Assembly: GCA_045123255.1 (NCBI GenBank)
Contig: JBGVIN010000023.1
Location: 7,247 to 71,246 of the forward strand
Direction of reading: 5' to 3'
Source of the DNA: Eubacteriales bacterium
GTDB lineage: Bacteria; Bacillota; Clostridia; Oscillospirales; CAG-272
DNA: 64,000 bases
Below are positions 4,746 to 62,880 of the stretch, piece by piece (positions within the stretch are counted from its first letter, which is position 1; every line of letters begins with the position of its first letter). A program made the position numbers and the translations under genes. The notes below the pieces were generated by a model. The model was not told the origin of the DNA. It did no database searches and saw nothing but the letters and a program-made list of their open reading frames with translations.

Positions 4746-6221
4746 CTATATTTTAAACACACTTTGACCCTTTGGTACATCTATTTCGACAGGGTACCAA
4801 AGGTACTTTGTTACCACCTTCAGCTTAAATGGCTTTTGTGCTTCCACCTTTACGGTGGTTTGCCCCTTAAATGGATGGTATTCGGTGCATACTATGCTTA
4901 CAAGATTGGAATTAAAAATCATATTTTCTATTCCGCATTTTTCACGGTTGTTTAGGTGGAAGGTGACTTGATTTTTATGTGCATCAAATTCAAGACCGAT
5001 AATGTTTTCAATAAGCATAGTTATTGGCGCAATTCCACTCCAGCCTACAAATTCGTCACGGGACAGCGTGTTATATTCAGTGGTGGCGGGGCGATAAGCG
5101 TCCGGGGCATAGCATTCCCAAATGCTGCCGTACGCTACATCGTTTGCAACCTTGCACATGCCGTCAAGATACTTTATGGCAGCTTCCCTTGCGTATTCGT
5201 GATATCCGTTTTTACAAAGTCCCTTTATAGCGCACAGGTTAGTTGGCGCCCATACTCCGCCAAGCCAATAGCCACCGGCAGTATCGTAATTTGGGTCATC
5301 CTTTGACAGTGTGGCAAAGGGGATTTTTGTGTAAAATTCGTTTTCGTTCATCATGTGCGCTACTACCGAGCGAAGTCTTTCGCCATATGCAACCCCTGAT
5401 ACAAGTGTCCAAAAGGTGGCGGCAGTTTTTGAGTTTATAAACTTAACCCTATCGCCTTTCCATGTGCGGGTAAAGAAATTAAAATACCAACCTGCTTTTT
5501 CGCTATAATGAAGCTTGTTTATGTTGTCGCAAATGCGCACGTGCTCATTTTCATAATGCTCCGCCTTTTCATTTAAGCCAAGCTGACTACATATATAAGA
5601 TATACAAAGGGCACTAAGTGATTGCTGACAGGCAAGGTCAACAAAGCAAGTGTCACTTCCGTCAACGTGCTTAGCTCCATATCCACTAACAGGGGAATTA
5701 TCCATTCCGCTGGAGCCTGTATCTTCAAAATAGTAAAGGTCGCAGCTTTCTCTTTTTCTATTTTTCTCAATAAAATTATAAATCCCCTCAAGTGCAGGCA
5801 AGACGCGCTCAAAGCGTGAGGAGTCACCCGAAATCAAATAGTGCTCCCATTCTGCCCAAGCCATAAGAGGCGGGTTTATTCTATCGCCATAAGTAGGCTC
5901 GCCATCATCAAGGTTATACGCCATAGCCATAAAGCCATCGTTCTTGCGCCTTAGCATATATAGATTGTCAAGATTATTCAAAGCACTTAATGTGCCGTTT
6001 GAATAATTGGTAATAAAGGTCATTATGCAGGAGTCCCATTGCCACATGATGCCCACTCCGGGCATACAGGTTAAAATGTCCTTCCAGCCATCCTTTTCTA
6101 TATATTCCACATTTTTAAAGGCAAGCTCCCAGGCTTGATAGTAAAGATTTATAAAGTCATCACGTCCATCTAAAATAGGACGGGGCAAGCTTTCCTTGTT
6201 GTAAATATAGCGGTTTTCCAT
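4746..6221 (-). CDS. Six-hairpin (alpha/alpha)6 glycoside hydrolase, GH63/MGH1/trehalase-like
   Basis: A 491-aa ORF with AAAGGAG upstream. Overall resemblance to cytoplasmic (alpha/alpha)6-barrel glycosidases (WQWDSCIMTF, GGYWLGGVWAPTN). Family assignment is from memory only. Confidence 0.6.
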   Translation of the reverse strand: MENRYIYNKESLPRPILDGRDDFINLYYQAWELAFKNVEYIEKDGWKDILTCMPGVGIMWQWDSCIMTFITNYSNGTLSALNNLDNLYMLRRKNDGFMAMAYNLDDGEPTYGDRINPPLMAWAEWEHYLISGDSSRFERVLPALEGIYNFIEKNRKRESCDLYYFEDTGSSGMDNSPVSGYGAKHVDGSDTCFVDLACQQSLSALCISYICSQLGLNEKAEHYENEHVRICDNINKLHYSEKAGWYFNFFTRTWKGDRVKFINSKTAATFWTLVSGVAYGERLRSVVAHMMNENEFYTKIPFATLSKDDPNYDTAGGYWLGGVWAPTNLCAIKGLCKNGYHEYAREAAIKYLDGMCKVANDVAYGSIWECYAPDAYRPATTEYNTLSRDEFVGWSGIAPITMLIENIIGLEFDAHKNQVTFHLNNREKCGIENMIFNSNLVSIVCTEYHPFKGQTTVKVEAQKPFKLKVVTKYLWYPVEIDVPKGQSVFKI

Positions 6222-10712: not shown

Positions 10713-12044
10713 ATGGGAAAATATTTTGGAACGGACGGCTTTCGCGGCAAGGTGGGCAAGGAACTTTGCGCCGCCCACGCATATAAGATAGGAAAATATT
10801 TATCAAAGAGCGGTGACGGGGTAAAGATTTTAGTGGTAAAGGACACGCGCCTCTCCTCAGGCATGCTTGAATGTGCGCTTAGTGCTGGTATTGCAAGCGG
10901 TGGCGGAAATGCATATCTTTTAGGCGTTAGTACAACCGCGTGCGCTTCATATTTAACCTACGAATGTGGCTTTGATTACGGCGTGATGATTTCGGCAAGT
11001 CACAATCCATATTACGACAACGGAATTAAGATTTTCGACCGATTTGGCGAGAAATTGAGCGACGAGGAAACCGAAAAAATCGAGGCGTATTTAGATGAAA
11101 AAACAGACACGTCCCCCGACAAAACGGGAAAAGAGATAGGAAAAGTGGTCGATTTTTATAAGGGTGCTGAAAAATATACCGACTTTTTGATAAGCACCGC
11201 AGAAACAAAGCTAAATGGCTTGACGGTAGGACTTGACACCTCAAACGGAAGTGCGTTTTCGGTTGCACGCGAGGTCTTTGAGTCCTTGGGTGCGACTGTA
11301 TATCAAATAGGCGGTGAGCCGAACGGAACGAATATAAATTTTGAGTGCGGCTCAACAAATATCGAGGTGCTTTCGCGCTTCGTTAAAGAAAAAAATCTCG
11401 ACCTCGGCTTTGCCTATGACGGAGATGCGGACAGGTGCATAGCAGTTGGCAGGGGTGGTGAAATAATCAGCGGTGACGGAATTTTGTTTATTTTAGGCAA
11501 AGAGCTTAAAAGAAACGGCGAGTTATCAAAAAATACCGTTGTGACAACGGTGATGACAAATTCTGGCGCGTGGGACTCCTTTGAAAAAGCGGGGATAAGT
11601 GTCGAAAAAACGCAGGTAGGCGACCGCTTTGTTTACGAAAAAATGAAGGAGTGCGGCTATTCACTCGGTGGCGAGGACTCAGGGCATATTATTATAAGCA
11701 AGTATGCAAAAACGGGTGACGGAATTTTGACCTCAATAAAATTAAGTGAGCTTGCACACAAAAACGGAAACGAGCTCGACGGTCTTTTAGATGGTTTTTC
11801 TGTTTTTCCGTCGGTACAGGGTGGCGTTTTGGTAAAGAATAAAGAAAAAACGATAAGCAATCCGCGCATATGGGAAAAGGTCAATTATTACGAAAAGGTC
11901 TTAGGGAGTGGACGAATTTTAGTGCGTGCAAGTGGCACAGAGCCAAAAATCCGCGTGCTTACAGAGGGAAAAAGCATCACCCTTTGCCGTGAAATTTGCG
12001 CGGAGCTTCAAAATTTAATTTCGGAGTGTGACAATGAACGATAA
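10713..12044 (+). CDS. glmM: Phosphoglucosamine mutase
   Basis: MGKYFGTDGFRG is at the N-terminus. The active-site segment is SASHNPYYDNGIKIF. Length is 443 aa. Confidence 0.93.
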   Translation: MGKYFGTDGFRGKVGKELCAAHAYKIGKYLSKSGDGVKILVVKDTRLSSGMLECALSAGIASGGGNAYLLGVSTTACASYLTYECGFDYGVMISASHNPYYDNGIKIFDRFGEKLSDEETEKIEAYLDEKTDTSPDKTGKEIGKVVDFYKGAEKYTDFLISTAETKLNGLTVGLDTSNGSAFSVAREVFESLGATVYQIGGEPNGTNINFECGSTNIEVLSRFVKEKNLDLGFAYDGDADRCIAVGRGGEIISGDGILFILGKELKRNGELSKNTVVTTVMTNSGAWDSFEKAGISVEKTQVGDRFVYEKMKECGYSLGGEDSGHIIISKYAKTGDGILTSIKLSELAHKNGNELDGLLDGFSVFPSVQGGVLVKNKEKTISNPRIWEKVNYYEKVLGSGRILVRASGTEPKIRVLTEGKSITLCREICAELQNLISECDNER

Positions 12045-18310: not shown

Positions 18311-18597
18311 ATATATATAATATATAGTAGAGTTTTACGCGCGTAGGCGCGATTAACTGTGGCGTGTGCAATATTTGCGCGTAGGCGCGAGTATTTACGC
18401 AAATTATTTACTTATTATAAAATTAGGCTACATTTTTACTCATTTTTCGCAAAAATTGTAAATTTTTTTTGAATTTTCCCTCTTTTTATATATATTTTTA
18501 TATATAATATATTGCAATTTCAAAAATAGTATGGTAAAATATGCATAAATGAGGATGGTTTAACCAAACTCGATATTTTGTAAGGGGGTATACTGAA

Positions 18598-20174: not shown

Positions 20175-20406
20175 CAACCAATGGTTGCCCCTATATCCAT
20201 CAACCGCAGGTTGCATATCATCACACATAGTGTGCATATCACCAATGCAAAGCATTGTATATCATCACCGCAGGTGTATATCATCAAGGCATTCGCCTTG
20301 TATGTTCCTCACGCACCATAGGTGCATATCACGTGGCTGAGCCACATATCACGCCTTGCTTACAAGGTTATATCACGTGCCCACGCACATATCACGTCCG
20401 CAGGAC
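20175..20406 (+). repeat. Hairpin/linker array B (11 hairpins, linker [CT]ATATCA[CT])
   Basis: The 11 hairpins are caaccAATggttg, caaccGCAggttg, cacacATAgtgtg, caatgcAAAgcattg, caccGCAggtg, aaggcATTCgcctt, gcaccATAggtgc, gtggcTGAgccac, ccttgCTTAcaagg, gtgcCCACgcac and gtccGCAggac. They are separated by catatcat, catatcac, tatatcat and atatcac linkers. Confidence 0.8.
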
Positions 20407-51324: not shown

Positions 51325-51471
51325 TTTGTTATTCCTTTCGAAAATGATATTTTGACGCGCCCGCGTATAGGCGCAATCTTTTGCCTAATAATTATAACAA
51401 AAAAACGGCGCAAAGTAAATAGGCAAGTGGCTAAATTGCCCATTTCTACATTTTGCACAAAAACGAGAGCG

Positions 51472-51509
51472 AAAAAAGAAAATGCACAACGCTTAAATTG
51501 TGCATTTTC
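51472..51509 (-). terminator. Terminator downstream of array C and the DUF4886 gene
   Basis: A 12-bp stem gaaaatgcacaa/ttgtgcattttc, followed on the minus strand by a T-run. Confidence 0.75.
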
Positions 51510-51526
51510 ACTATATTATAAATAAA

Positions 51527-51705
51527 ATGAATTGAAGCAAAGCTTCATAAATTGTAACTATGTTACATAAATTGCGCCGTTGGCATATGTATTGTCGCAA
51601 AGCAACATTAAAAATGACGTTAGTCAATTCATGGCGTTTGCCAATTCATGTTTCGCAGAAACAATTCATGACGAAGTCAATTCATGTTTCAAAGAAACAA
51701 TTCAT
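51527..51705. repeat. Hairpin/linker array C (10 hairpins; ATGAATT-like linkers, then AATTCAT x5)
   Basis: The 10 hairpins are gaagcAAAgcttc, gtaacTATgttac, gccGTTggc, gtcgcAAAgcaac, gacGTTAgtc, ggcGTTTgcc, gtttcGCAgaaac, gacGAAgtc and gtttcAAAgaaac, with gccGTTggc set in gcgccgttggca. The last linker contains the TGA stop of 51702..52421. Confidence 0.85.
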
Positions 51706-52421
51706 CCCTTGTAGGTCAGGTCGCGGGCAATTTCCTTTAGCTTTTGGCAAATTTCGGGGTCTGTGTCCTCGGGCTCGTAGGAAACAAGTGTTGCGTCATT
51801 ACCTGTGAAGAAGCCGTACATAGTTAAGCCGGCGAGATATCTGCCGTAGTCAAGAGAGAGGTGAAAGCCGTCGCGGTTGATGTTTCTTTCACCTTGAAAT
51901 TCGGGCAAATCACGTGCTGCCTCAATTGCTTCACCGTTTGGAATTACCTCTAAGCCGTGCTTAGCTGCAAAGAAATTGCTCGTTTCTATAATAGCCGCAA
52001 TCATTTTCTTACGGTTGTTATCATAATTTACAAAGCCTGCGTGTGTGCTTTTGTCGTCGTACGCCCAGGTTCTGTGGAAAACTATTCTTGCTTTCGGGCA
52101 TTTTTCCTTTATAAATTCCAAAATGTTAGTAAGAAATGGCTCATAGGTCTCGGGCATACCCGAAAAATGGCTAACCTGCTGAACGGTTATAAAATCCCAT
52201 TTTTTCTTTGTGAGCGCATCATTTATAGACATCATTTTGAGCATTCTGCCGTTTTTTTGCCATTCGTAGTCGGCGCGAGCTTCGACAATATTATTCCAAT
52301 GAGTTTCAAGAGAGCAGCCGCCAATATAAAGGTTGCGTACGTAAATTTCCTCATTTGAAATCTGATGTAAATATCTCGTTGAGTCCTGCGAAAAGCTGTT
52401 TCCTATACAAAGTACGTTCAT
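51702..52421 (-). CDS. DUF4886-like SGNH/GDSL-fold hydrolase
   Basis: The ORF is trimmed to the ATG at 52421 (AAAGGAGAA upstream). N-terminus MNVLCIGNSFSQDSTRYL. The longer ORF extension runs through array D. Confidence 0.7.
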   Translation of the reverse strand: MNVLCIGNSFSQDSTRYLHQISNEEIYVRNLYIGGCSLETHWNNIVEARADYEWQKNGRMLKMMSINDALTKKKWDFITVQQVSHFSGMPETYEPFLTNILEFIKEKCPKARIVFHRTWAYDDKSTHAGFVNYDNNRKKMIAAIIETSNFFAAKHGLEVIPNGEAIEAARDLPEFQGERNINRDGFHLSLDYGRYLAGLTMYGFFTGNDATLVSYEPEDTDPEICQKLKEIARDLTYKG

Positions 52422-52443
52422 ATTAGTTCTCCTTTTAGTCGAA

Positions 52444-52645
52444 ATGAATTGTGCCAATGGCACATGAATTGTTGCGAAGCAACATGAAATGAAGCAGAGC
52501 TTCATAAATTGTGACAAAGCACATTAATTGTTTTTCTGAAACATGAATTGGCTCCGCCATGTTCTTTTAATGCCAACGGCAATTCATGACACATTGTGTC
52601 AATTCATGTCCGTAGGACAATTCATGATGCCACGCATCAATTCAT
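52444..52645. repeat. Hairpin/linker array D (10 hairpins; ATGAATT-type x6, centre, AATTCAT x4)
   Basis: Left hairpins are gtgccAATggcac, gttgcGAAgcaac, gaagcAGAgcttc, gtgacAAAgcac, gtttTTCTGaaac and ggcTCCgcc. After the centre come gccAACggc, gacacATTgtgtc, gtccGTAggac and gatgcCACgcatc. The last linker contains the TGA stop of the radical SAM gene. Confidence 0.85.
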
Positions 52646-53598
52646 GTGTCAACACGTATCCCTTGATACGTGCCGCGCTTTAGTAGCTCCTTGTCAATAT
52701 CGTTTATTACCGTTACCTTTTTTCTTGACCATTCGGGGGCGAGAAGCGTGCTTGCAATTCCGTCACCCGTCACTCGCTCGATAACTATATCGTCAGGGAG
52801 CAGCTCAATTTGGTCGCAAACGGTATCAATATACTCCTGCCTGTCGATGGGCGTATATTCGCCTCTTTCGTACATTTTGGCGAGGGGAGTGTCTGAAATT
52901 ACGTGTAAAAGGTGAATTTTAACAAGGTCGGGATGCAAATTTCGTACACGTATCGCGGTATTTTTCATATCCTCGCGTCCCTCACCCGGCAAGCCGTTTA
53001 TAATGTGTATGCCGATTTTTACGTCGGGCGCTCCGCGCCTGAGGCGATTAAAGCCGTCAACGAAGGCTGCAAAATCGTGTCCGCGGTTGATTAGCTTGGC
53101 GGTTTTATCGTTCGCGGTTTGAAGTCCAAGCTCAACCGTTAGCGGTATTTTTTGCGAAATTTCATTCAAAACGGAAATTATTTCGTCGCTAAGACAGTCC
53201 GCGCGCGTTGCGACGTCAACCATCACGCAACCCTCAAATTTAGACACGTGGTCCAGGATTTTTCTTAAATTATCGGGGGACGTGTGCGTATTTGTGTATG
53301 CTTGCAGATAGGGAATGAAGCTTTTTGTTTGCCATTTCTTGCTCAAAACCGCAATTCCCTCACGGTATTGCTCCGAAAGCGGTAGGCAAGCGCGAGAAAG
53401 CCCTGCGCCGCTTCCACCCGAGCAGTAAATACAGCCGCCTGTTCCAACAGTACCGTCAATATTCGGACAGCTAAAGCCACAGTCAAGCGGAATTTTTGCA
53501 CATTTTTCGCCAAAGCGGTGCTTTAAGTAGTAGTCATAGGTGTGATATCGCTTGTTCGTATCGCTATACTTGAAAGGATTTTTGTCAACCTGTGAAAT
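52642..53598 (-). CDS. TIGR01212-family radical SAM protein (YtqA-like), non-canonical start
   Basis: The reading frame is open from 53673 down to the stop. The part upstream of the track ORF encodes NKRYHTYDYYLKHRFGEKCAKIPLDCGFSCPNIDGTVGTGGCIYCS (family N-terminus and Cys cluster). There is no ATG/GTG/TTG before 53346. ATT codons at 53596..53601 follow GGGGGCGG. Confidence 0.7.
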   Translation of the reverse strand: MSQVDKNPFKYSDTNKRYHTYDYYLKHRFGEKCAKIPLDCGFSCPNIDGTVGTGGCIYCSGGSGAGLSRACLPLSEQYREGIAVLSKKWQTKSFIPYLQAYTNTHTSPDNLRKILDHVSKFEGCVMVDVATRADCLSDEIISVLNEISQKIPLTVELGLQTANDKTAKLINRGHDFAAFVDGFNRLRRGAPDVKIGIHIINGLPGEGREDMKNTAIRVRNLHPDLVKIHLLHVISDTPLAKMYERGEYTPIDRQEYIDTVCDQIELLPDDIVIERVTGDGIASTLLAPEWSRKKVTVINDIDKELLKRGTYQGIRVDT

Positions 53599-53726
53599 AA
53601 TACCGCCCCCTTGACTTAAAAAATTTTCGCGCTTCGCGCTATAAGGATATTTTACAACAAAGGCAAGGCGAAATCAAGGCAAATGGAAAAATAAAAACAA
53701 AAATCGACAGGCAAAGCCTGTCGATT

Positions 53727-59359: not shown

Positions 59360-59543
59360 TGACGCAAACGCGTCAATGAAATGAATCCCCAAGGATTCTT
59401 GAAATGACCTTTCGGTCATGAAATGATTGCTGTGCAATCGTGAAATGCTCTTTTGAGCATAGGATTCATTTTATTTCATGATATTGTAAATATCATTTCA
59501 AGACAAGCTTGCTTGTCATTTCAAGTGCGAAAGCACATTTCAT
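59360..59543. repeat. Hairpin/linker array E (8 G...C hairpins; ATGAAAT-type x4, centre, ATTTCAT/ATTTCAA x4)
   Basis: It starts 1 nt after the carB stop. See the findings for the unit list. Further hairpins (ttttgccAAggcaaaa, gcttgcTTGgcaagc) extend to 59614. Confidence 0.85.
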
Positions 59544-61976: not shown

Positions 61977-62061
61977 GAATTAAATCTTGCTTCGCAAGAA
62001 TAAATCCCTTTGGGATGAAATCACATTGTGATGAAATCCACGCAAGCGTGGGTTGAAAAAT
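61977..62061 (+). repeat. Hairpin/linker element F (after pyrF)
   Basis: GAATTAAAT-cttgcTTCgcaag-AATAAAT-cccTTTggg-ATGAAAT-cacATTgtg-ATGAAAT-ccacgCAAGcgtgg-GTTGAAAAAT. Confidence 0.85.
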
Positions 62062-62125: not shown

Positions 62126-62776
62126 ATGGAACAATACAAGAGAGAATTTATACAGTTTTTACAAAACGCAGGCGTTTTGAAGTTCGGTGATTTCACCGCG
62201 AAGAGTGGCAGAAAAATCCCGTATTTTATCAACGCAGGCGAGATTAAAACAGGCGAAAACATCGCAAAATTGGGCGAATTTTACGCAAAAGCGTACTTCG
62301 ACAAATTAGGAAAGAAGGAAGCTGCACTTTACGGCCCTGCATACAAGGGAATTTCAATTGCGGTTGCAACGTCGGTTGCTCTTGCAAGGGAAGGCTTAAA
62401 TCTTCCGTTCTTCTTTAACCGCAAGGAGGTTAAGGACCACGGAGAGGGCGGCGTTTTCGTTGGCTATAAGCCAAAGGCAGGCGAGGAGGTAGTTATCGTT
62501 GAGGACGTAATTACCGCAGGCACTGCAATTCGCGAAACGATGGAAATTATGAAGAGCGTTGACGGCATAAAGGTTGCCGCTTGCTTCGTTATGGTTGACC
62601 GCAAGGAAAAGGGTCAGGGCGAAAAGGGCGCAATGGTTGAAATTGAGGAGGAGTTTGGCTTCCCTGTATACTCCGTTGTTGACGTTTACGATATTATCGA
62701 GTACCTCGAAGAGGACGAAGCGAACAGAGAAAACGTTGAAAGAATAAAGAAGTACCGCGAGGTTTACGGAGCGTAA
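62126..62776 (+). CDS. pyrE: Orotate phosphoribosyltransferase
   Basis: FGDFTAKSGRKIPYFIN and the PRPP-binding segment VVIVEDVITAGTA. Confidence 0.92.
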   Translation: MEQYKREFIQFLQNAGVLKFGDFTAKSGRKIPYFINAGEIKTGENIAKLGEFYAKAYFDKLGKKEAALYGPAYKGISIAVATSVALAREGLNLPFFFNRKEVKDHGEGGVFVGYKPKAGEEVVIVEDVITAGTAIRETMEIMKSVDGIKVAACFVMVDRKEKGQGEKGAMVEIEEEFGFPVYSVVDVYDIIEYLEEDEANRENVERIKKYREVYGA

Positions 62777-62880
62777 GCATAAGCGAGCTTATGCAATTAA
62801 ATCCAAGCAAGGCTTGGAATAAATCCCTGCGGGATGAAATCGCAAAACGATGAAATCCGCGCAACCGCGGACTGAATAAT
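62777..62880 (+). repeat. Hairpin/linker element G (after pyrE), paralog of F
   Basis: gcataagcGAgcttatgc-AATTAAAT-ccaagcAAggcttgg-AATAAAT-cccTGCggg-ATGAAAT-cgCAAAAcg-ATGAAAT-ccgcgCAACcgcgg-ACTGAATAAT. Confidence 0.85.

Follow-up and report, generated by a model that had tools for sequence, protein, structure and literature searches.

The window analysed here is a 64-kb stretch of a single contig (JBGVIN010000023.1) from a Eubacteriales bacterium, in which two arrays of short palindromes, called C (51527-51705) and D (52444-52645), flank the gene for a DUF4886 protein downstream of a TIGR01212-like radical SAM gene. From the analysis of their sequences, it is moderately probable that C and D are local members of a lineage-wide family of tandem tagged mini-hairpins resembling repetitive extragenic palindromes (REPs) and bacterial interspersed mosaic elements (BIMEs). 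The arrays are later additions to the transcribed spacers of a radical SAM-DUF4886 gene pair that is itself old, and the copying of blocks in either orientation between neighbouring spacers accounts for the "bracketing" of the gene and for the "mirror" look of each array. A preliminary description of this DNA had reported mirror-type arrays around DUF4886, and all of the features it gave for them are present in the sequence.

The best parse of C and D is a head-to-tail series of units of about 20 nucleotides (nt), each made up of a 5-nt tag and a variable palindrome TG...CA. On the + strand, the tag reads TGAAT in the left half of both arrays and ATTCA in the right half. The terminator-proximal block of C (51527-51614) has four hairpin units, two of them imperfect, and its TGAAT-type tags decay inward on the + strand (ATGAATT, ATAAATT, ATAAATT, ATATGTATT, ATTAAAAA). 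The ATGAATT-type linkers previously attributed to this left half are thus found in the first linker, the rest being degenerate. Five hairpins and five exact tags form the stop-proximal block of C (51615-51705); these tags are ATTCA on the + strand and hence TGAAT on the coding strand. Array D begins with a block of six hairpins on the side of the ribosome-binding site (RBS; 52444-52559), with TGAAT-type tags on the + strand and ATTCA on the coding strand. Tag orientation flips at the centre of the array (52560-52570, tgttcttttaa), whose core GCATTAAAAG is shared with the related locus L001. The stop-proximal block that follows (52571-52645) contains four hairpins and four to five exact ATTCA tags on the + strand, again TGAAT on the coding strand. 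A palindrome gtgtcaacac (52646-52655) lies beside array D, within the radical SAM coding sequence. The near-identical units said to be common to both arrays are confirmed in two unit pairs: tgaagcAAAgcttca + TAAAT in C (51533-51552) matches tgaagcAGAgcttca + TAAAT in D (52490-52509), and gtcgcaaagcaac, which has one C.A mismatch, matches gttgcgaagcaac. The pattern AATTCAT-N9-14-AATTCAT occurs eight times in the window, always within C or D, and never in 100 shuffles. In array D, 10 perfect hairpins have a stem of 4 bp or more (mean 4.2 and maximum 8 in 500 dinucleotide shuffles) and seven have a stem of 5 bp or more (mean 1.7, maximum 4), while array C has seven perfect hairpins plus two or three degenerate ones.

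The family extends well beyond these two spacers. A hairpin-chain scan of the window yielded six arrays (A-F) with about 45 units. Array A (20201-20406) has 10 hairpins with the tag (C/T)ATATCA(C/T) in a single orientation. Array B (59360-59543), which begins 1 nt after the stop of an open reading frame (ORF) of 1057 amino acids (aa), has (A/G)TGAAAT tags and then ATTTCA(A/T). Array F (61985-62051) has four hairpins with the tags ATAAA, TGAAA, and TGAAAT, and array E (62777-62871), starting directly after a stop at 62776, has five with AATTAAA, ATAAAT, and GAAAT. In metagenomes, an exact scan for ATTCATG-N7-11-CAATTCATG-N7-11-CAATTCATG matched at least 120 contigs, those displayed having 43-62% GC. 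The counts given below refer to the matches listed (L070-L189), with genes taken from crude ORF calls; one of these contigs, L091, was assigned to the Clostridia by its GAPDH neighbours. Among the 118 arrays parsed from the listed matches, with F and R standing for the two orientations, 53 are F only, 41 R only, 13 FR, and 11 RF. A "mirror" simply means two blocks in opposite orientation. The earlier statement that either strand reads ATGAATT first therefore holds for C, D, and array B, and fails as a family rule (FR 13 vs. RF 11).

Units in the listed matches measure 16-22 bp (mode 20), with up to 14 in a row. The conserved part covers 5-9 nt and the variable part is a palindrome of 11-17 nt, giving a unit consensus ATTCA-TG-nnn-C-GnA-G-nnn-CA and a general tag form RTGAWWT/AWWTCAY. 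Most of the listed arrays (97/118) lie outside long ORFs; they usually start no more than about 20 nt from the upstream stop, and often finish at the next RBS. The other 21 of the 118 are found within long open frames, mostly with the stop-less ATTCA strand in sense. In 23 of the 170 TGAAT blocks from the listed matches, an ORF of at least 100 codons ends on the TGA in one of the first three tags, and arrays may truncate or extend annotated proteins. Some GAPDH homologues have 384-479 aa rather than 338 aa. An all-against-all comparison of 2514 ORFs from 127 loci revealed no recurrent protein family beside the arrays except an ABC-transporter-like one, at eight loci. A search of viral contigs gave seven matches, among which L065 is a plain tandem repeat and L069 a non-hairpin match. 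No description of such arrays was found in the literature searched, which is not proof of novelty.

What is conserved in these arrays emerges from the comparison with L001, where TGAAT/ATTCA arrays occupy both DUF4886 junctions. The D arrays of the window and of L001 are orthologous unit by unit, GCATTAAAAG centre included. Within the conserved D block, 56/61 stem positions (92%) are identical (Fisher p = 3e-7 vs. four-fold sites), as are 27/30 tag positions and 13/23 loop positions, the loops being no different from neutral. At four-fold degenerate sites in the flanking genes, 195/325 are identical (57-62%). One D unit shows a compensatory change from C-G to T-A together with a loop inversion from TTC to GAA. 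Between L005 and L008, whose four-fold identity is 59%, tags are retained and several stems have been swapped with full compensation. These comparisons show constraint on the tag sequence and on stem pairing, the identity of the central base pairs being free over longer times. They also show arrays gaining and losing whole units: the stop-proximal half of D has four units in the window against about 1.5 in L001, and L073/L086 differ from L133 by one unit duplication and one compensated pair.

How the two arrays came to bracket DUF4886 was addressed by scanning GTDB species genomes with the radical SAM protein, which gave 62 loci. The closest 35 of the 62 are metagenome-assembled genomes (MAGs) of uncultured Clostridia, Eubacteriales, and Oscillospiraceae, including many of ruminant-gut origin (the RGIG series). 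About 22 related MAG loci retain the gene order radical SAM-DUF4886-Flg_new. In several of these relatives the radical SAM/DUF4886 spacer is free of arrays and very short, 3 nt in L005 and 12-32 nt in L003, L006, L008, L010, and L017. The closest locus by DUF4886, L002 (92% aa identity), has an unrelated 91-nt spacer there and no array D, and carries a TGAAT array 3' of DUF4886. In other genomes the same spacer holds other tags: GTGATAT four times in L009, GTGAAAT five times and then TATATCAT four times in L011, CTGATAT in L004, and ATATCGC in L024. Because different tag types occupy it in different lineages, this spacer must have been colonised repeatedly. The preliminary description had suggested that DUF4886 was inserted into, or duplicated together with, a pre-existing array, splitting it into C and D. 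The two near-identical units and equal tag polarity of C and D would fit such an event, as would the related arrays at both junctions of L001. However, the gene pair is already adjacent, with array-free spacers of 3-32 nt, in relatives at 57-79% identity; it is ancestral, array D is missing in L002, and the repeated arrival of different tag subfamilies in one spacer speaks for independent colonisation. Relatives without DUF4886 have an ordinary spacer after the radical SAM gene and no array at the junction, and no single undivided array was found at the radical SAM/DUF4886 junction among the relatives compared. DUF4886 relatives with unrelated spacers and no flanking arrays, named beforehand as the observation that would contradict the insertion, are thus what was found. 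We consider the insertion very improbable. The loci compared show a radical SAM-DUF4886 pair that is old, with arrays added later to its transcribed spacers. In L003, L006, L019, L023, L024, and L029, DUF4886 is present as two or three tandem paralogues after the radical SAM gene, and the inter-paralogue spacers of L019 and L024 hold other repeats, such as GGTCAGTGGTCAGTGG runs and an ATATCGC hairpin array.

The likeness of C and D is better explained by block copying between neighbouring spacers than by gene insertion. A near-identical three-unit block is common to the two arrays of L001. In L002, a 10-unit TGAAT array (5198-5386) lies between an MGS-like gene and the tRNA-Thr promoter, about 1.3 kb from D's spacer, and its units TGATGC..GCATCA, GACAC..GTGTC, and TGTCCTACGGACA are those of the stop-proximal block of D in the window. 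The window has no array at that MGS-like/tRNA-Thr site and L002 has none at the site of D, as if a block had moved or been differentially lost. In L091, a 135-aa ORF (11097-11504) upstream of GAPDH lies between two arrays (10931-11112 and 11674-11956) of 9 and 14 units, which have units in common and a higher-order duplication of five to six units. In view of the cases of L001, L002, and L091, bracketing by related arrays is a recurrent by-product of local block copying. The radical SAM protein ends in ...RVDT* in the window, in ...RCFAT* in L001, where the last hairpin is coding and the first tag provides the stop, and in ...NRTK* in L002, which has no array. These different C-termini confirm that the array encroaches on the coding end. 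The arrays extend up to sequence protected by selection, which is on one side the end of the coding region, whose stop codon is then supplied by the TGA within a tag, and on the other side the RBS or the terminator.

Which molecule folds can be approached from the units themselves. Whole-array RNA folding gives z = -3.6 to -5.4 against shuffles, and the minimum-free-energy structure from RNAfold favours long-range pairing between the array halves, tag against tag. This long-range pairing was rejected: unit numbers are unequal in the two halves, and FR arrays are no commoner than RF or single-orientation ones. It is also countered by covariation, which backs local hairpins. Over 97 distinct units, 91.6% of cells are paired, as compared to 64.3% in shuffles (0/500 reach that value). 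All four Watson-Crick types occur at the three central pairs, and G.T makes up 9/582 cells, no commoner than other types of mismatch. The loops are strongly asymmetric. On the TGAAT strand of the listed matches, TGC occurs 93 times vs. 0 for GCA, TTC 70 vs. 1 for GAA, TTT 34 vs. 6 for AAA, and TAC 13 vs. 1 for GTA, while the tetraloops comprise TGAC, TTAC, and TTGC. Of 426 units, 388 have C-G as the closing pair. Because of this loop bias and closing pair, it is the ATTCA strand that bears c(GNA)g and c(GNNA)g. For arrays between co-directional genes, whose orientation was also used as a stand-in for replication, the sense strand reads TGAAT in 25 listed cases and ATTCA in 15, and the T..C loop bias is present in both transcriptional orientation classes (39/59 and 25/35). 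Arrays with other tags have equal loop polarity (L019, L026, L005/L008, and array A of the window). The family loops match the DNA mini-hairpin motif GCGNAGC/GCGNNAGC, for which melting temperatures of 76.5 C for d(GCGAAAGC) and 39 C for r(GCGAAAGC) are given (PMC13037366); a role of the C-G closing pair has also been documented (PMC3201870). Since loop asymmetry follows the tag regardless of transcription and G.T pairs are not favoured, we infer that the relevant fold is probably single-stranded or extruded DNA rather than mRNA. Two other ideas about what the arrays as a whole might be were discarded. A miniature inverted-repeat transposable element with terminal inverted repeats was rejected as left-half and right-half units do not correspond, and so was a general function as a "three-frame stop module," with one TGA per tag at a period of about 20, given the many arrays in which the sense strand is the stop-less ATTCA one.

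A possible link to Y1 transposases comes from Bacteroidota. The contig L128, selected by the tag pattern, encodes a Y1 transposase (PF01797, E = 2.8e-28; NF033573, 67 bits), and 3' of its stop (338-470) there is a hairpin, four tandem copies of CA-ATTCA-TG + 3' arm, and an inverted hairpin. This Y1 family is large and highly conserved, comes from Bacteroidota, and is named "REP element-mobilizing transposase RayT" by the Joint Genome Institute; its motifs DHCH, WQ, and YIKNQEEHH fit subclass 1.2 of Quentin et al. (PMC6006769). The Y1 genes of L190, L192, and L193 are flanked by hairpin-CAATTCA and TGAATTG-hairpin, and that of L191 (1960-2260) by the variant CAATTGATG. These flanking hairpins have 8-bp stems, and tandem "3' arm + tag" repeats occur in L128, L190, and L191. 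Four of the five Bacteroidota Y1 loci have the same two neighbours, a carboxyltransferase and an enoyl-CoA hydratase gene, one on either side. The 7-nt tag TGAATTG/CAATTCA common to C, D, and the flanks of these RayT-type genes supports a mechanism like that of REPs and their REP-associated tyrosine transposases (RAYTs), without being proof of it. RAYT group 1 has been reported from Clostridia (PMC5581495). The search for Y1 genes, by tblastn and with a hidden Markov model built from matches, yielded only L021, a canonical IS200 without the tag, and the Bacteroidota L128.

A model can be proposed. As the relevant folded form is probably DNA, the arrays would probably be propagated by a Y1/HUH enzyme, either a RAYT or IS200-like, that recognises a hairpin plus tag in single-stranded DNA. 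Units would be gained and lost when replication slips from one tag to another. Once in place, the arrays would be passively carried in mRNA, D as an intercistronic string of hairpins and C as a string in the 3' untranslated region (UTR). There they would probably have REP-like effects on the message, through protection from 3' exonucleases and segmental stability, and probably also on termination at a stop codon that has a hairpin within 5 nt.

Several observations weigh against this reading. Neither the window nor about 1.5 Mb of Clostridia array-bearing loci contains a Y1/HUH gene, so that the cognate enzyme in these Clostridia is still putative. Subclass 1.2 is itself listed without REPs, and as mostly restricted to Bacteroidetes and Cyanobacteria (PMC6006769). 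The stems vary from unit to unit and the units are head-to-tail, unlike described REPs. In C and D, only about 5 of 19 loops obey the GNA rule, which agrees with neutral loop evolution there. The listed metagenome matches were chosen by exact tag, with loops and central stems unconstrained, and may include redundant strains. The hairpins may also have a role at the RNA level, palindromes folding in either transcript orientation, and the 92% stem conservation at orthologous positions fits a selfish element no better than selection for a host function. There is also a stronger variant, which we hold to be possible but less probable than the REP/BIME-like reading: an undescribed superfamily of tagged mini-hairpins in gut and rumen Clostridia, maintained by selection and acting as single-stranded or extruded DNA, with a dedicated enzyme that writes, copies, and inverts units, and even re-terminates genes. 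That enzyme would possibly be a new RAYT-like Y1 lineage sharing its tag with the Bacteroidota subclass. If so, the arrays would be a programmable, array-building form of REP biology instead of decaying selfish DNA.

Other explanations put the function elsewhere. The arrays could be cis elements at the RNA level, with strings of hairpins and AU-rich tags controlling segmental mRNA stability (by blocking 3' exonucleases and offering RNase Y/E-type cleavage sites) and termination or re-initiation at the junction, and this we find unlikely. Such a role would suit the position of C and D, both within a predicted transcription unit (C before the terminator, D between stop and RBS), and the habit of family arrays of starting shortly (about 20 nt or less) after a stop and often ending at the next RBS. 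Stems and tags conserved above neutral, with loops that are not, form the classical signature of selected structure, the arrays fold better than their shuffles, and mRNA effects of this sort are known for REPs in E. coli (cited in PMC6006769). But the orientation of the tag relative to transcription is nearly random (25:15 among the listed matches) and the loop asymmetry tracks the tag rather than the sense strand. Moreover, loops and closing pair make up motifs stable in DNA (GNNA), not the GNRA or UNCG of RNA, G.U pairs are not enriched over other mismatches, and there is no Rfam match.

This same independence from transcription, together with a location at 3' ends and between genes, would fit an element of duplex or extruded DNA that manages transcription-induced supercoiling at gene ends, either through a nucleoid protein or gyrase that binds tags phased at about two helical turns, or as supercoil-sensitive small cruciforms. 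The period of 16-22 bp (mode 20) agrees with this, c(GNA)g hairpins with 5-bp stems do work as single-stranded DNA at phage N4 promoters (PMC13037366), and BIMEs bind gyrase and IHF (cited in PMC6006769). However, a protein reading the duplex needs neither palindromic spacers nor a strand-asymmetric loop, phasing is loose with units of 16-22 bp, and no candidate protein is known; we hold such an element to be unlikely too. Finally, the alternation of a short conserved repeat with variable sequence superficially recalls guide-RNA arrays of CRISPR or TIGR-Tas type, in which the variable stems would be spacers, and TIGR "stem-loop arrays" also hold variable palindromes (PMC12045711). Here, though, units have 16-22 nt and not 36, and the variable part amounts to 2-4 self-complementary bp and not to two unpaired spacers of 8-12 nt. 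No Nop-domain (Tas) or cas gene adjoins C or D, which lie among the radical SAM, DUF4886, and Flg_new genes; no neighbour family recurs in the 127 loci, and arrays are scattered through housekeeping spacers. A guide function is hardly conceivable.

On the minus strand, the radical SAM gene (52642-53601; Pfam Radical_SAM_C and Radical_SAM) has a TGA stop (52642-52644) inside the last tag of array D, and the DUF4886 gene (51702-52421; Pfam PF16227, E = 1.5e-66), which encodes 239 aa (240 codons with the stop) from an ATG at 52421, has its own TGA (51702-51704) inside the last tag of array C. The earlier claim that both genes end on the TGA of a linker is therefore correct. Array D was also rightly taken for the intercistronic spacer, as judged from the lack of a terminator within it and from the DUF4886 RBS, AAAGGAG (52429-52436, minus), read from the sequence directly after it. 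Likewise, array C does lie between the DUF4886 stop and an intrinsic terminator (51478-51509, minus), which is supported by a 13-bp stem followed by a T-run and by its conservation in L001 and L002. A promoter-like site (53677-53649) follows the tRNA-Thr terminator, and the next terminator is only at 51509-51478, with a separate promoter-like site (51419-51391) for the Flg_new gene. From these promoter-like sites and the position of the terminator, radical SAM and DUF4886 are predicted to form one bicistronic transcription unit. The units of C and D were also considered as intrinsic terminators, or as a terminator cluster. They have no T-runs, and this was rejected because the true terminator is downstream of C and because D precedes an RBS and a gene. 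In the window, Rfam finds only tRNA-Thr at gathering score, the best matches in the array regions having E values of at least 0.1, far below threshold.

The start of the radical SAM gene is uncertain. Its open frame has 343 codons. In the portion 53346-53680 (minus), none of the codons ATG, GTG, and TTG precedes the CxxxCxxC motif, and a canonical start is first reached with the TTG at 53346, after that motif. An RBS-like GGGGG run (53610-53606) is followed by ATT ATT (53601-53596), so that translation may begin at a non-canonical ATT; the homologous place in L002 is occupied by TTG. A promoter-like match, TTGACA-17-CATCAT (52652-52624, minus; 10/12, with TG), arises where the radical SAM ORF ends and the first units of array D begin, and is a match to consensus only. 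Outside the tagged arrays, there are two G+C-rich palindromes of the type CGCGCGTAGGCGCG at about 18.34-18.40 kb (18340-18400) and a similar one, GCGCCCGCGTATAGGCGC, upstream of the Flg_new gene (51357-51374).

REPs and their RAYTs are the main example of persistent, possibly beneficial bacterial repeat DNA, and are known mostly from Proteobacteria, with conserved palindromes. A Clostridial family with a different logic, namely a constant tag and constant pairing, free stems, strictly tandem units, and a DNA-specific loop motif, would extend this biology to dominant gut and rumen anaerobes. It would also be a natural test bed for the in vivo recognition of short DNA hairpins. For annotation, it explains many MAG genes that end on a TGA inside a repeat (the 23 of 170 listed blocks), and is a warning that ORFs may be truncated or extended by arrays. 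The tag beside Bacteroidota Y1 genes gives a concrete handle for the enzyme search.

Among known systems, guide arrays are like this family in the regular alternation of short conserved and variable segments, and unlike it in unit size and architecture; the family has a self-complementary variable part and no adjoining effector gene. CRISPR arrays have identical repeats of 24-48 nt, unique spacers of similar size, and cas genes. In TIGR-Tas arrays, each 36-nt unit contains two unpaired spacers of 8-12 nt set between edge repeats and loop repeats, or box C/D motifs, and a Nop-domain gene adjoins the array (PMC12045711). Tandem hairpin RNAs such as MAEB and those of the CsrB type (PMC1950547) also have several similar hairpins in tandem in non-coding regions, but with conserved loop or stem motifs, a fixed orientation, and specific gene sets, whereas the orientation of the family is free and its asymmetry points to DNA. 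DNA mini-hairpins, d(GCGNAGC)/d(GCGNNAGC), share the C-G closing pair, the GNA or GNNA loops on one strand, and stems of 4-7 bp. They are known from the phage G4 origin, RSF1010 ssiA, and the phage N4 virion RNA polymerase promoters, where they function as single-stranded or extruded DNA (PMC13037366). These are single primase or polymerase sites, in contrast with tagged tandem arrays in chromosomal spacers. The Y1 subclass 1.2 (Quentin et al., 2018, PMC6006769) comes close in having low-copy, highly conserved members with the YIKNQEEHH motif, and the flanks of five of them carry CAATTCA/TGAATTG or a variant. It differs by its 8-bp stems, TAAA or TTTA loops, singlets or doublets instead of long arrays, and another phylum.

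The closest known kind is REP/BIME-RAYT. Like the REPs and BIMEs (including REPINs), the family consists of short extragenic palindromes in high copy, clustered, with a conserved tag at the foot of the hairpin. Its 3' UTR and intercistronic location, its blocks in both orientations, and its long persistence are also REP-like, as is the presence of the identical 7-nt tag beside Bacteroidota RayT-type genes. Its tag, however, is TGAAT(TG)/CAATTCA or the RTGAWWT variant, and not GTAG or CGTC. Its units of 16-22 bp, with stems of 4-7 bp, follow one another head-to-tail without spacer, and the stems differ in each unit (the central 2-4 bp vary), although a limited shared vocabulary of units exists. 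Orientation changes only between blocks, without inverted doublets or regular alternation. In the REPs described so far, the palindrome sequence is constant within a genome and the copies are organised as inverted doublets. The family thus fails the described REP superfamilies on tag, palindrome conservation, and doublet organisation. The nearest published picture is that of the GTAG-1 REPs of Thauera sp. MZ1T, which have a GTAG tag, a proteobacterial host, and a conserved stem sequence, but share with the family very short stems (5 bp in Thauera) and tandem arrays (Di Nocera et al., 2013, PMC3733652). There too, gene clusters are "immediately flanked by arrays" (PMC3733652).

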